Shown here in pieces: positions 1,640 to 29,275 of a stretch of 29,275 nt of DNA. The stretch comes from Coleofasciculaceae cyanobacterium RL_1_1 (GTDB taxonomy: Bacteria > Cyanobacteriota > Cyanobacteriia > Cyanobacteriales > Geitlerinemataceae). Position 1 is the stretch's first letter; the number at the start of each line of letters is the position of its first letter. The DNA is taken from the NCBI GenBank assembly GCA_012033105.1, contig JAAUPN010000024.1:1-29275 (forward strand), read 5' to 3'. The notes beneath the pieces were generated by a model, which had not been told where the DNA came from, did not search any database, and was given only the letters and a program-made list of their open reading frames with translations. The translations under genes and the position numbers were made by a program.

Positions 1640-1787
1640 TCAGACAAGAAAGATCAATATCTGAGATGATCCCATAGACCGGGAATCCCAGGCCAAAATC
1701 ATCCGGTAAAACGCCAAGGCGAAACTCAAGACCCAACCTTCAAGCCAAAACCACAGACCCAATCGGATCAAGGCTCACCCGGATGTC

Positions 1788-1905
1788 ATACGAAATCCGG
1801 TTCTATATGAGAAAAATACAAAATACTTATGAGCACTGAGCGGAGTCGAAGTGCGGTGTCCACCTAGAGCGACGATCTAAGATTATGCACAATCGGATTT
1901 CGTAT
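1788..1905. repeat. 118-bp unit bounded by a 12-bp perfect inverted repeat (atacgaaatccg / cggatttcgtat) enclosing repeat copy A
   Basis: The inverted repeat can be read directly. It lies in the intergenic region upstream of ureD. Confidence 0.4.
1831..1857 (+). repeat. structured short repeat copy A (gagcactGAGCGGAGTCGAagtgcggt)
   Basis: It shares the GAGCGGAGTCGA core with four other loci. The 5-bp stem is gcact/agtgc. Confidence 0.6.
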
Positions 1906-1984
1906 CATACCCTCGAATTCCGAATATGCCACGGATCAACCCCTTGCATTGTTCCGGATTTCCCGCTATTTCTTCATCTTCCTT

Positions 1985-8557: not shown

Positions 8558-9570
8558 GTGAATTCTGCCTTTCCCGTCACCCATTCCATTCTGTCGGTTC
8601 CGGCGCTGCTGGCGAAAATCGCGGTGGACTACGCGATCGGCCCGCCGATCGACGGCCATTTACTTCAGCTTGGTCTGAACGATACGTTTCGGCTACGGAC
8701 ACCGGCGATCGTCTACATCGCGCGAGTCTATCGCCACGGCTGGCGCACCCGCGCCGAAATCCTCTACGAGTTGGAGGCATTGCGACACCTACAGGCGCGA
8801 GGGATGAAGGTGGCCGCGCCGATTTTGCGTCGGGATGGCGAGCTGATCGGCGAGCTGGATGCGCCGGAGGGGGTGCGTTATCTCGTGTTATTTGACTATG
8901 CCGAGGGTGAGGAGCCGTGTTATGACGCAGAGACTGGCGCGGCTCAGTCGGGTGATCGTCGATCGGATGTGTATCTGTATGGTCGATCGGTCGCGCAGGT
9001 ACATCGGGCAAGTGATGATTTTGCCTGCGATCAACCACGTTTTACGCTGGATTTAGATTATTTACTGACCCATTCACTATCTAAAATTCAGCCGTTTTTA
9101 TCGAATCATGCGGCGGTTTGGGATGAGTTAGTGAGTTTGACAACACGTTTGCGCCAAAAGCTGAAAAACTGGCCGATCGAGCATTTAGAAACGGGGTTTT
9201 GTCACGGGGATTTCAAGGTGGGAATGCTCATATTCAGCCCGCAGATCGATCGCTGACGTTGTTTGATTTTGACTGTTGCGGTCGAGGGTGGCGGGCGTAC
9301 GATTTGGCGGTGTTTCGCTGGAATGTGGCAGTGAATGGTCTGCCGCTGCGGGTGTGGGAGGCGTTTTTGGCGGGGTATCGGGCGGAACGGGCGATCGCGG
9401 CGATCAATCTGGCGGCGATTCCGTACTTTGTGGCGGTGCGTCAGGTGTGGATTATGGGGTTACACTGCGGGAATAGTGGAGATTGGGGAGTGGGTTGGTT
9501 GAATGGGCGATATTTCGCGCGATCGTTGAATTTTTTGCGAACTTGGGAAACGAATGAATTCCCCTCGTAG
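8558..9570 (+). CDS. aminoglycoside phosphotransferase (APH)/kinase-like fold family protein; frameshift near 9215-9225
   Basis: The catalytic HGDF motif sits at the end of ORF 8558..9256. The expected continuation GGNAHIQ...LTLFDFDCCGRGWRAYDLA, which contains the DFD/DxD motif, is in the overlapping ORF 9199..9570. Start codon is GTG with GAGGTG upstream. Confidence 0.6.
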
Positions 9571-9591
9571 GGTGGGCAATGCCCACCCTAC
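9567..9591. terminator. perfect 11-bp stem-loop (gtagggtgggc aat gcccaccctac) overlapping the APH stop codon
   Basis: The inverted repeat can be read directly. No U-tract follows, so it may be a processing or stability hairpin rather than a classic terminator. Confidence 0.4.
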
Positions 9592-9603
9592 TCAGAGCAT
9601 ACT

Positions 9604-9632
9604 GAGAGCGTTGAGCGGAGTCGAAACGCGGT
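9604..9632 (+). repeat. structured short repeat copy B (gagagcgttGAGCGGAGTCGAaacgcggt)
   Basis: The core is the same. The stem is gcgtt/aacgc, which compensates for the change relative to copy A. Confidence 0.6.
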
Positions 9633-9740
9633 TCCGGGGAAAGCAAAATAGAGTCAGGATATTCCGTTTTTTATTGCTATATCCGCTGACTGTATATGCG
9701 TGATGGTGGGCAATGTCCGAAAATTGTGGATGAATACGAA

Positions 9741-11325: not shown

Positions 11326-11401
11326 ATGTTGTGAATCGTAAGTCAATATCGTCATTCGAGTGAAGCACGAGATATCTTGACCTAGCTGGTCGAACTCAAA
11401 G

Positions 11402-11475
11402 ACCGCACTTCGACTCCGCTCAGTGCTCTTTCGACTCCGCTCAGTGCTCTTTCGACTCCGCTCAGTGCTCTTCGG
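11402..11475 (-). repeat. repeat copy C: tandem array of 3 x 21-bp units (tttcgactccgctcagtgctc) ending in a full stem-bearing unit
   Basis: The 21-bp period can be read directly. The array lies between the hypothetical gene and wecB. Confidence 0.6.
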
Positions 11476-18443: not shown

Positions 18444-18700
18444 AGGGCAAACGCATACTCAGTTTTCATCGCAAATCAAGTCGGGGTTCGAGCACTGAGC
18501 TTGTCGTTGGCGCAGCCTTCGCTTTGCGAATAGTGCGGCCACTTCCTACGAAAATCGCCAGCCTTCGACCAGCTCAGGCGGGACTTACGCAGAAGTCCGA
18601 CTTCTAAACGAAACGTCGTCGTTCTAACTCTCAGAACAACGGGAGAAGTCGGACTTCTCACACCCCTTGCGTAAGTCCCGGTGGGGTATGCGTTTGCCCT
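18444..18700. repeat. 257-bp nested inverted-repeat (MITE-like or structured-RNA) element
   Basis: The outer inverted repeats are perfect 15-bp terminal inverted repeats, agggcaaacgcatac at 18444-18458 and gtatgcgtttgccct at 18686-18700. Inside them are 27-bp arms (cgggacttacgc-agaagtccgacttct) with a 10-bp bulge and an inner 5-bp hairpin. Confidence 0.5.
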
Positions 18701-25887: not shown

Positions 25888-26843
25888 CTATTGTCCTGAT
25901 CGTGTTTGACGGCTCTTGAGAACTCGCAGGAGTTTGTCAAATACTGACGGAGGATCGGCGATCGCGGCGATTTCCTGGCCGGTACGCGGGTGGCGTAGGG
26001 TTAGTTTCCAGGCGTGCAGGGCTTGGCCGGGGAGGTTGACGCCGATCGTTTGGGCGGAACTGTAGAGCGGGTCGCCGATAATTGGGTGACCGATCGCGGC
26101 ACTGTGGACGCGGATTTGGTGGGTGCGTCCGGTTTCGAGGCGAAAATGAATCAGGGTGTAGTTTCCGAGGCGATCGATGACATCCCAGTGGGTGACGGCC
26201 AAACGTCCCCCATGCTCAATGTCTAAGATGGTCATCTTTTGCGATCGGCAGGATGGCGTCCGATCGGTAAATCGATCATGCCGTGATCTTCGCGAGGGGA
26301 ACCGTAGACGAGGCCGAGGTATTCGCGGCGTGCGGTTTTGGCGGCGATCTGTGCCTGGAGGTGCTGATGGGCGAGGTCGGTTTTGGCGACGACGATCGCG
26401 CCGGTGGTGTCTTTATCGAGGCGGTGGACGATGCCGGGGCGTTGGGTTCCACCGATGCCGGATAGTTTGCCCTGGCAGTGATGCAGCAAGGCGTTAACTA
26501 AGGTGTCCTGGGTATGGCCGGGGGCGGGATGAACCACGAGGCCGACGGGTTTATTAACGATCAGCAGATCGTCATCTTCGTAGAGAATATCGAGGGGCAG
26601 ATCGAGCGGAATCAGAGCATCGAGGGGTTCGGCGTCGGGGATGGTGATTTCGAGTCGATCGCCGGGTTTGAGCTTCTGTTTTTTTTGGGTACAGGTGACA
26701 TCATTGAGGCGTACATGTCCTTGCTCAATTAGGCTTTGCAGGCGCGATCGGGATAAATCGTCAATGCGATCGGCGAGTAGGCGATCAAGGCGATCGGAGG
26801 TCTCTGCGATTAGGGTGATGGGGTCAGGCATGGCAAGGGGCAA
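25888..26843 (-). CDS. rluD: 23S rRNA pseudouridine synthase RluD (RluA family with N-terminal S4 domain); frameshift near 26230-26260
   Basis: The S4-like N-terminus reads RLDRLLA...SRSRLQSLIEQGHVRLN. The catalytic motif HRLDKDTTG is in the first ORF. The conserved C-terminal part (HGGRLAVTHW...HQIRVH) is in the second ORF. Confidence 0.8.
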
Positions 26844-26996
26844 AGGGCTCGATATTCTCGATATGATGGCCTAATAACTGGTGTCGCTTTCATCCGATAT
26901 TTCATTCAACCACAGCCACACAGCCACGCCGAACTTGTCTCGGGTTTTGTGTGCTGTTCAAGCCCTAAAAACCATGCTAATCAGGATGATCGATCG

Positions 26997-27851
26997 ATGA
27001 AACCGATCCGTACGGGAAAACTGCGTGTTGAACGCCTGACGATTCCTTTCGCCAAATTACCGCAACGACTGCATGGCCTCAAAATCGTCCAACTCTCGGA
27101 TCTGCACTACACCAACAGTCAGCTCTCCGATCGCCTGCTCAACCAGGCGATCGACACCGTGAACCGTAACGCCCCGGATATTATCGTCCTCACCGGCGAT
27201 TTTATTCACGATGAGCCGGAGCCGATCGACAGCCTAATCCCATTTCTCAAGCGGCTACACGCCCGCCACGGCATCTACGCCATCCTCGGCAACCACGATA
27301 TCTACCTGCCCGAAGCCCGCCATTACGTCACCCGAGCGCTGTCGCGGATTGGGATTTGTGTGCTGTGGAATCAGGTGGTGTATCCCGCTGGTGATGGTTT
27401 AGCCTTGGTGGGTCTCGCGGATCTGTGGTCTGGTGAATTCGACCCGCGCCCGTCTTTCGCGACCTCGATCCGGATGTGCCGCGCATCGTGTTGTCCCACA
27501 ATCCCGACACCGCCGAAACCCTGCGCCGCTGGCGTTGTGACCTGATCCTGTCCGGCCACACCCACGGCGGCCAACTTGTGTTACCGTTCCTTGGCCCTTT
27601 GCCGAAATACCTCGACTTTTCCGCTGGATCATTCCCAAGCCGCTCTATCCTTACCTGCCCCTGCTGGGGAAAGGGGACTACGTGACGCAGCACTGGGAAT
27701 GGGCGTCGGGGATGTTTCGCCTCGGTCGCAATCGGCTGTATGTGAATCGCGGTTTGGGGTCGTATTTTCCCGGTCGTTTTGGCTGTCCGCCGGAGGTGAC
27801 GGAGTTTGTGGCGATCGCCCAGCCCAATGCCCCGAAATACGGGTTTGATTA
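26997..27851 (+). CDS. calcineurin-like metallophosphoesterase; two frameshifts (about 27455-27480 and 27640-27650)
   Basis: The motifs run in the canonical order LSDLH, GDFIHD and GNHD in the first frame and ILSGHTHGGQ in the second. The conserved C-terminus YVNRGLG...PEVT is in a third frame. Confidence 0.7.
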
Positions 27852-27885
27852 AGAGTATTGCCCAAACATAATCGCCTCAAAAAAA

Positions 27886-28130
27886 GCTGAGAGCAATGAG
27901 CGGAGTCGAAGTGCGGTTCTTAACTGAGACGAGAGTGTCCTAATTTAGTCGGCTTGCATTCTATCAGGCATCATCGCCGATCTCAAGAAGTGCGACTTTT
28001 CTCAAAAGTCGCACTTCTACATCAGTCCGAAGTCTGATCGCGATAGTCAGTTCACCCAAAAAAGCAAGACCAGTTGACTCTGTTCTGTTTGCTCAAACAC
28101 CGCGTTTCGACTCCGCTCAACGCTCTCAGC
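27886..28130. repeat. 245-bp MITE-like composite element bounded by 33-bp terminal inverted repeats (repeat copies D and E) with a central perfect 15-bp hairpin at 27986-28018
   Basis: The left terminal inverted repeat is gctgagagcaatgagcggagtcgaagtgcggtt. The reverse complement of the right one is gctgagagcgttgagcggagtcgaaacgcggtg. The central hairpin is agaagtgcgactttt ctc aaaagtcgcacttct. Confidence 0.55.
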
Positions 28131-28285
28131 ATATTCTGACAATCATTGAACGGATGATAACGGTTAGGCCAACGGCGACGCGGCCAGCAAGACCCACACC
28201 CCGGCTAAACCCAGAATACAAAGCAGCCACAATACACGCCGTATGGTCATGGTTGTCTGGGATAACGGGGTCGGGTTCATCCGGT

Positions 28286-29275
28286 CTAGGACTTGGGTAA
28301 CTGGTACTGACTGACGATCTTTTTCGCGAACTCGGGGACGTGGGCGTCGAGATTTTCGGGGTGGTTGCGTTGGGTGTAGAGATAGTTGCGTGTGAAGTGC
28401 GAATCGATCGAGAATCGCGCGTATTCCAAACCCTTCGGGCCAAAGCGCTCGATAAATACACCCATGAGCCGTGCTGCCCACATCGGCAACGTCACGCCCA
28501 TATCGTAAGCCGGGATGCTTTGCTGGACGGCCTGTTTACGATCGCCGCTAGAGCTAACGGGCTGGGTTTCGAGCCGATCGCGAATCAGCTCCAACATCTC
28601 CGCCCCCGTCTCATTCCGCACCACAATCCATTGCCACTGGAACGGCGCACCCATGTAGCCCACTACCAAATCCGCCAAACCATTCGTGTAGTCAAAACAG
28701 CTCATGCAGGACGGCGCAAACACGTCTTTAAGTTCTTTTGTATTCAGGCCAAAAAACGGGACGAGTTCGATCGAGCCGTCCTCATGGCGGAAGTGAACCC
28801 GAAAATCCTGCATAAATTCGTAATGCACCACGGTTTCCGGCGATCGGCTCGTGGTTTCCAAGAACTTTTGCAGACCGGCGCGATCGACATTATCCACGCA
28901 GGGCATCCCCAACACGTAGAGCTTTTCGAGGCCAATCTCGTACTGCACGCTCGCAACGCCTGAATCTGACAGCCCACGCCGATCGCCAAGACACGCTTCA
29001 TACCTGCCTGTTCAATCTGTTCTAGCACCGACAAATTCGGCGACAGCGTCGGTTTATTCACCTTCGCCGCCAGCACCTCCGCCGGAGTTCGAGCCACGAT
29101 CGGCATCGGGCCAAAGCGATCGGTCGGCGAATTCTGCACACAGATCACGCCCTCCACCAGACCCCGTTCGAGCATTTCACAGGCCAGCATACTAACGATG
29201 CCCGTCCACTGTGCGCCCTCGATCGGCTGCGTATTACGCGCCGCAAACATCTCCTGATGCACACCAAAATACAGC
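28286..29275 (-). CDS. FrhB-family protein (coenzyme F420 hydrogenase beta-like; HCAR-type in cyanobacteria). The 5' end runs off the window. Frameshift near 28930-28960.
   Basis: The N-terminal part QWTGIVSMLACEMLERGLVEGVICVQ...VGCQIQALRA and the C-terminal part YEIGLEKLYVLGMPCVDN match conserved FrhB blocks. The frame is still open at the window edge (..LYFGVHQEMF). Confidence 0.65.

Follow-up and report, generated by a model that had tools for sequence, protein, structure and literature searches.

An inverted repeat in a cyanobacterial intergenic spacer, probably formed by neighboring members of two MITE-like repeat families

Introduction

Two inverted copies of a structured repeat lie in the spacer between a metallophosphoesterase gene and an FrhB-like gene of Coleofasciculaceae cyanobacterium RL_1_1, and the question raised by this locus is whether the 245 bp that they span are one unit or a place where separate repeats have come to lie side by side. 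An earlier note on this DNA had read the two copies as the terminal inverted repeats of a MITE-like, non-autonomous mobile element, with a large structured non-coding RNA as the alternative. Here, we follow up that reading in the whole stretch of DNA that was analyzed, 29,275 nt of contig JAAUPN010000024.1 (the window), which with 54% GC and 39 HIP1 sites (GCGATCGC) in 29 kb is cyanobacterial in character, and in related loci from other genomes. We find it probable that the spacer holds three independent small repeats, namely a D-type element, a separate palindromic hairpin and an E-type element, rather than one element.

Results and discussion

The spacer and its flanking genes

As stated in the earlier note, the repeats lie between the metallophosphoesterase and FrhB-like genes. 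These are convergent, and the spacer that holds the repeats is 311 nt long (27853-28163; all features are collected in Table 1). A hydrophobic ORF of 28 codons, which may encode a small membrane protein or be spurious, lies downstream of the FrhB/BciB-like gene, its end separated from the E-type element by 4 nt. Homologs of the metallophosphoesterase reach at most 56% identity over their full length, with 75% for one fragment of 97 aa, and they stop some 11 codons before the window protein, whose 11-residue C-terminal tail AQPNAPKYGFD (27817-27858) they lack. For the BciB-like protein, identity to homologs is 85% at most, and the loci of these homologs (L114-L116) are not syntenic with the window.

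Between 25888 and 29262, the metallophosphoesterase, BciB/FrhB-like and RluD-like genes are all frame-split, in the ways given in Table 1. Because adjacent genes read in more than one frame, this probably reflects indel errors of the assembly, or else genes in decay or pseudogenes.

Table 1. Positions of the repeats, their parts and the neighboring genes in the window
Feature	Position	Strand	Remarks
RluD-like gene, two ORFs	25888-26235 / 26232-26843		Split over reading frames
Metallophosphoesterase gene, left flank	26949-27852	+	Read in three frames; 3' end piece 27682-27852
Metallophosphoesterase stop codon	27850-27852	+	
Possible remnant of D left arm	27835-27858	+	Overlaps last six codons and stop codon of metallophosphoesterase; tentative
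D-type MITE-like element	27873-27964	+	5'-truncated or decayed; central module and right arm with right terminal repeat kept
Core hairpin of D	27893-27914	+	Stem GCAAT/AGTGC with one A.G mismatch; loop GAGCGGAGTCGA
Perfect 15-bp palindromic hairpin	27986-28018	none	Arms agaagtgcgactttt/aaaagtcgcacttct at 27986-28000 / 28004-28018; 3-nt loop
E-type MITE-like element	28042-28159	-	Complete copy; its own terminal inverted repeats present at both ends
E terminal inverted repeats	28042-28056, 28145-28159		Each with 3 mismatches to the consensus TATAGTCAGTTCAAT
Imperfect hairpin and U6 in E right arm	28058-28092	-	Hairpin 28064-28092, U6 28058-28063; fold prediction
Core hairpin of E	28102-28123	-	Stem GCGTT/AACGC, perfect; loop GAGCGGAGTCGA
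Small hydrophobic ORF, 28 aa	28164-28250	-	MTIRRVLWLLCILGLAGVWVLLAASPLA; between BciB-like gene and E element
BciB/FrhB-like gene, right flank	Stop codon 28286-28288	-	Read in two frames
Copy A, full A-type element	1786-1908		Core 1833-1854; nhmmer
Copy B, partial E-type element	9585-9678		Core 9608-9629; nhmmer
Copy C, partial E-type element	11347-11429		Core 11405-11447; nhmmer
Long-loop core variant	18490-18548		Matches L088:3102-3160
Variant hairpin gcctGAGCTGGTCGAaggc	18561-18579	-	

An inverted pair of core hairpins

The left copy (D, 27886-27917) agrees with the reverse complement of the right copy (E, 28099-28130) at 28 of 32 bases, and a repeat search extends the match to a wider inverted repeat of 41 nt at 83% (27877-27917 / 28099-28139). 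The inverted arrangement and the span of 245 bp thus stand as first described, while the alignment is 32 nt long rather than the 33 bp originally given. All four mismatches (positions 10, 11, 26 and 27) fall within a 5-bp stem, at its two variable pairs, in agreement with the claim that they are compensating stem positions, but the D stem retains an A.G mismatch; compensation is complete between families and incomplete within D. The 13-mer GAGCGGAGTCGAA has seven exact copies in the window (at 1838, 9613, 11409/11430/11451, 27898 and 28106), and at up to 2 mismatches it is matched eight times against 1.29 expected, a number reached in none of 100 shuffles. The D/E inverted repeat is confirmed as real and beyond chance, and the perfect 15-bp hairpin reported between the two copies is indeed present.

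Each copy lies inside its own element

Related loci were found through the core motif, so copy counts are biased. Two Geitlerinema MAGs (CAZFJL01 and JAABST01), whose loci show no orthologous overlap, served as the family reference, and in them the similarity to the window copies continues well beyond the 32 nt, into the sequence that flanks the motif. With the full L010 element as query model, nhmmer aligned window D to model positions 27-118 of 121 (E = 4.7e-19), and with an E-type model it aligned window E to positions 5-120 of 126 (E = 3.7e-22). By blastn, window D is 94% identical to L010:6324-6402 and 91% to L080, and for window E the identity is 87% with L026 (109 nt) and 80% with L038 (119 nt). 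The homology passes both ends proposed for a 245-bp unit, reaching 27873 and 28159, and stops inside that unit, at 27964 and 28042, so the claim that the D and E copies are terminal inverted repeats did not hold up. Because family similarity overruns the proposed termini and ends within the unit, each copy is instead central in an element of its own of about 120 nt.

The alignments, together with a scan for terminal repeats, define the families to which these elements belong. D-type copies occur at L009, L010, L080, L081 and L086 besides window D, and E-type copies at L026, L038, L111 (a hybrid) and L080/L082 (divergent) besides window E, B and C. The arms of the D-type, E-type and A-type families are mutually unrelated, and their terminal inverted repeats differ from family to family as well (TATAGCAAAAACCGATT..., the E-type consensus TATAGTCAGTTCAAT... 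and (T)ATACGAAATCCGG...), which always occur as pairs 105-120 nt apart. All D- and E-type copies start with TATAG and end with CTATA, which fits a TA duplication, or a TA that is part of the terminal repeat. Taken singly, the D- and E-type elements are small and non-coding, with members of 115-121 nt and terminal repeats of 15-27 nt, and each family is dispersed and multi-copy among the loci found through the core motif, so that in size, structure and copy number they correspond to MITEs. The original MITE-like, non-autonomous reading was therefore right in kind and wrong in architecture, the spacer holding two elements of about 120 nt and a hairpin in place of a single unit. No autonomous insertion sequence with the same terminal repeats was found in the related loci, in which the scan gave MITE-sized pairs only.

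What the two MITE families have in common is a central module of about 45 nt, TCA..A-GCTGAGAGC-(5-bp stem)-GAGCGGAGTCGA-(stem)-GGT, and a full-length member as a whole folds into a single long hairpin whose tip carries the core (for L038, L086 and L008, z = -4.6 to -7.6). A D-type and an E-type element lying tail to tail, each with this same module, yield an inverted repeat of 32-41 nt that spans 245 bp. The stem type is ACT/AGT in every D-type and A-type copy and GTT/AAC in L026, L038 and window B, which are E-type; in the copies compared, the two stem types distinguish D-type from E-type elements. The stem mismatches between D and E follow family type, which points to two lineages of a hairpin-bearing module and not to drift between the ends of one element.

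The hairpin between the two elements is likewise a repeat in its own right. It belongs to another family of small dispersed repeats (AGAAGTSCGACTTTT-N3-5-AAAAGTCGSACTTCT; GAGAAGTCCGACTTTT..AAAAGTCGGACTTCT), with further copies of the 33-nt repeat at L008:669-701, L008:~1762 and L081:~7472; compared with these, the copy in the window shows a compensating C->G / G->C change. Related shorter palindromes, AGAAGTCCGACTTCT, lie at 18591 and 18644 of the window. Apart from this 33-nt hairpin, nothing in the 77-nt interior (27965-28041) resembles any of the other loci.

Module exchange and clustering

The same core is found in three backbones, that of the A-type included, and two further loci indicate, at the level of the sequences compared, that modules have been exchanged at the core: L111:233-350 is a hybrid whose left arm is D-type and whose right arm is E-type, with an ACT/AGT core between them, and L088:3058-3202 has an A-type backbone with a different, longer core in which a sequence of about 35 nt takes the place of the 12-nt loop. 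This longer core recurs in the window (Table 1), within a second cluster of repeats at 18490-18680 that lies in a spacer of 470 nt and also contains the variant hairpin gcctGAGCTGGTCGAaggc and the inverted repeat GGGACTTACGCAGAAGTCCGACTTCT ... AGAAGTCGGACTTCTCACACCCCTTGCGTAAGTCCC.

Other repeats adjoin the partial E-type copies of the window. Copy C, as an E-type right half, is joined to a perfect three-fold tandem repeat at 11409-11472, whose 21-nt unit TTCGACTCCGCTCAGTGCTCT consists of half the core and adjoining bases. A GTAG-headed perfect palindrome resembling classical REPs, GTAGGGTGGGCAATGCCCACCCTAC, lies at 9567-9591, where it overlaps the stop codon of the ORF at 9199-9570 and abuts copy B at the place expected for the E-type left terminal repeat; a partial second copy lies near 9705.

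Repeats of this kind were seen to cluster at few loci only, namely the window, L010 and L080. At L010:6177-6413, an A-type element abuts a D-type element, with one TATA common to both, and at L080:5984-6235, a D-type and a divergent E-like copy lie 8-10 nt apart, oriented relative to each other as in the window pair. Such adjacent elements at non-orthologous loci of a Geitlerinema MAG suggest insertion beside existing copies. The L080 pair is not a copy of the 245-bp unit, because its spacer and its E-like sequence both differ, and it gives at most a weak hint of a preferred adjacency of D-type and E-like copies.

Alternative readings of the spacer

Three other explanations of the spacer were weighed. 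The repeats could be an exapted bidirectional terminator, kept because their hairpins end or stabilize the converging mRNAs. Consistent with this idea, they lie between convergent genes, the strand of each element is that of the gene next to it, and the right arm of E is predicted to form an imperfect hairpin followed by U6 on the minus strand, which may be terminator-like for minus-strand genes and whose T-run is kept in E-type copies; such roles have also been proposed for MITEs generally (PMC10969869). However, a consensus terminator scan of the spacer flagged no terminator, the perfect hairpin and the D core lack a U-tract, and other copies in the window stand in non-3' contexts or antisense, copy A between divergent genes and copy C antisense. 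We regard it as unlikely that this explains the locus, while it is plausible, though no more than that, that the repeats secondarily help to terminate transcripts or to stabilize RNA, which is compatible with three independent repeats.

In the second alternative, transcripts that read through from one or the other gene would form a long D-E duplex with internal hairpins and act as a functional structured RNA, whether as an sRNA, as a substrate of RNase III or as an antisense regulator. The 311-nt spacer does fold far better than shuffled sequences on both strands (z about -7), and the stem differences keep pairing in E and across the whole family. Yet the juxtaposed inverted repeats alone account fully for this fold, window D by itself folds no better than shuffles (z = +1.0), and the covariation is a property of a dispersed hairpin family, not of the spacer locus. 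Rfam 15 at gathering thresholds gave nothing relevant to the core or spacer in the whole window, and at a permissive E <= 10 only chance miRNA and snoRNA matches (E >= 1) in 27800-28300; the arrangement is not conserved at any homologous locus. The repeats thus produce the strong fold as a by-product, and we consider a functional RNA here very unlikely.

The last alternative, a single non-autonomous element at 27886-28130 that moves as one unit with the 32-nt copies as its terminal inverted repeats, has on its side the inverted match of its ends, the D-type and E-like arrangement met once more in L080 and the inverted doublets of the core hairpin that are common in other bacteria, but we hold it to be extremely improbable, since family homology crosses both termini and ends inside, the interior is unique apart from an independent repeat, the L080 pair differs in spacer and E-like copy, and the usual core doublets have spacings of 3-57 nt and, for the most part, the reverse relative order. 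Two further checks went against it: there is no target-site duplication at 27886/28130, where 256 end combinations gave one 4-bp match (AATC) at shifted ends, as expected by chance, and no second full-length copy was found in the window, in 96 kb of related MAG loci (12 cyanobacterial loci), in 24 metagenome pairs or, by blastn of the unit, in a plasmid collection. The metagenome pairs came from a scan for convergent cores 180-210 nt apart, in which none of the 24 loci had the same interior and all were dense arrays of the general hairpin.

How the repeats may have come together

On the preferred reading of three independent repeats, D and E would each have arrived separately by trans-mobilized, non-autonomous transposition, and their TATAG...CTATA ends may mark a TA target as in IS630/Tc1-mariner-type MITEs, if the TA is not part of the terminal repeat. 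Elements could pile up in this spacer because the 3' ends of convergent genes would tolerate insertions, and, as a by-product, their hairpins, including the E hairpin with its U6, may stop or stabilize the two converging transcripts.

Of the two, D would have inserted earlier, given that it has lost its left terminal repeat and has a broken stem. No intact left terminal repeat is recognizable in window D, and the poor fold of D alone is consistent with loss of the left arm. A possible remnant of this arm at the end of the metallophosphoesterase gene (Table 1) aligns locally with the L010/L080 left arm at a score of 22, against a null of 12.8 +/- 2.5, a score that 0.5% of 90-nt windows reach (p ~0.005). 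Because homologs are shorter by about 11 residues and the end of the gene is left-arm-like, insertion of D may, tentatively and judging by these alignments, have rewritten the last codons of the metallophosphoesterase gene and so given the protein its new C-terminal tail. Fusions of ORFs with repeats are known for MITEs of Anabaena (PMC3184786).

Relation to known small repeats

MITEs have been described in cyanobacteria as Nezha of Anabaena and Nostoc and as the MaeMITEs of Microcystis (PMC3184786). Like the window families, these are elements of about 120-170 nt that are non-coding and multi-copy, with terminal inverted repeats and stable long hairpins, mostly intergenic and occasionally fused to the end of an ORF. 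Unlike them, the window families have one central hairpin module with differing arms, and the likeness noted here is one of description. Neither a partner insertion sequence nor a pair of empty and filled sites turned up among the loci compared. Correia-type MITEs have TATA termini (PMC4853749), and the TATAG...CTATA ends, long hairpin and implied TA-type target of the window families recall them.

The core also invites comparison with shorter repeats, none of which it matches in full. Elhai et al. reportedly described, in 2008, small dispersed repeats (SDR) of Nostocaceae with units of about 21-27 nt nested in larger repeats. The 22-nt core within unrelated MITE backbones, the variant core in the same backbone (L088) and the hybrid (L111) resemble this description. 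The core, however, is spread over many phyla, whereas SDRs are reported in Nostocaceae only (PMC5861425). REPINs, which are doublets of REPs that form hairpins and are mobilized by RAYT transposases (PMC3116915), resemble the core in having a short palindromic unit that often occurs as inverted doublets, and so match the idea of a two-copy element in the earlier note. In the window, however, 184 nt separate the two cores, an interval that contains unrelated sequence and a third repeat, and each core lies inside its own MITE, so they do not make up such a doublet. Classical REPs carry a GTAG or CGTC head (PMC3733652), and the core has neither. As for the grouping of repeats, the BOX, RUP and SPRITE repeats of pneumococci cluster as different small repeats in the same intergenic regions and insert beside or into one another, some with terminator-like hairpins (PMC10969869); the bunching in the window is similar, while sequences and host are unrelated.

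The core hairpin across bacteria

A scan with the motif GCNNTGAGCGGAGTCGAANNGC in one genome per species found more than 113 loci with the 22-nt core, GC-NN-T-GAGCGGAGTCGA-A-NN-GC, which consists of a covarying 5-bp stem and a fixed 12-nt loop. These come from Acidobacteriota, Bacteroidota, Planctomycetota, Chloroflexota, Cyanobacteria, Desulfobacterota, Verrucomicrobiota and other phyla, with many different stems, mostly of the GCCC/GGGC type among the core loci L001-L113 and L117-L152; 12 matches lie in viral contigs. At the two free stem positions, 95 of the 116 matches listed have Watson-Crick pairs and 6 more have G.U, and pairing ends at the 5-bp stem with no extension. The core lies outside ORFs of at least 300 nt in 39% of the matches listed, compared with 7% of random positions, and 20 of 114 matches listed have an inverted partner up to 80 nt upstream, compared with a background of 3%, the doublets being 3-57 nt apart. 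A generic hairpin-loop census of the loci was dominated by ascertainment. In metagenomes, inverted core doublets are repeated in tandem, about every 83 nt, at L119:3734-4199, L137:2161-2377 and L124:439-673, and these arrays recall BIME/REPIN arrays.

Several identities for the core were considered and set aside. When ORFs within 2.5 kb of the core were clustered at about 150 loci, no recurrent protein family emerged, which rules out a gene-specific cis-regulator. The likeness of GCACT/AGTGC to the CIRCE operator is coincidental, since the stem varies; a tRNA T-arm was dropped because the 3' strand is unpaired, and a hammerhead core because CUGAGCG lacks the required G8 A9. Rfam at gathering thresholds gave tRNAs only in 18 core-bearing loci, and a full-text literature search with the core and its variants, in DNA and RNA spellings, returned unrelated primers only.

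A loop that stays fixed while the stem is free to vary may mark a hairpin that is recognized by a sequence-specific protein, such as an HUH/RAYT-like nickase; the core could also be a self-contained RNA motif in which tandem G.A pairs form. It is possible, though doubtful, that the core is an undescribed pan-bacterial module, autonomous in trans, and that the core rather than the MITE arms is the selfish or functional unit. If that were so, the D/E pair would be an incidental meeting of two carriers.

Conclusion

The repeats of this spacer are additional members of an established kind of repeat, and the locus is an ordinary one of little consequence in itself, an inverted repeat made by two neighboring members of repeat families not being a composite transposon. 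The element boundaries given here guard against annotating such spacer repeats as an sRNA or a mobile unit, and the spacer is an example of MITE-like repeats gathering around the 3' ends of convergent genes. Should the core be confirmed as a specific protein- or RNA-recognition element, its importance would be wider, as a motif absent from Rfam and from the literature searched that has the same 12-nt loop and covarying stems in many phyla and in varied backbones.
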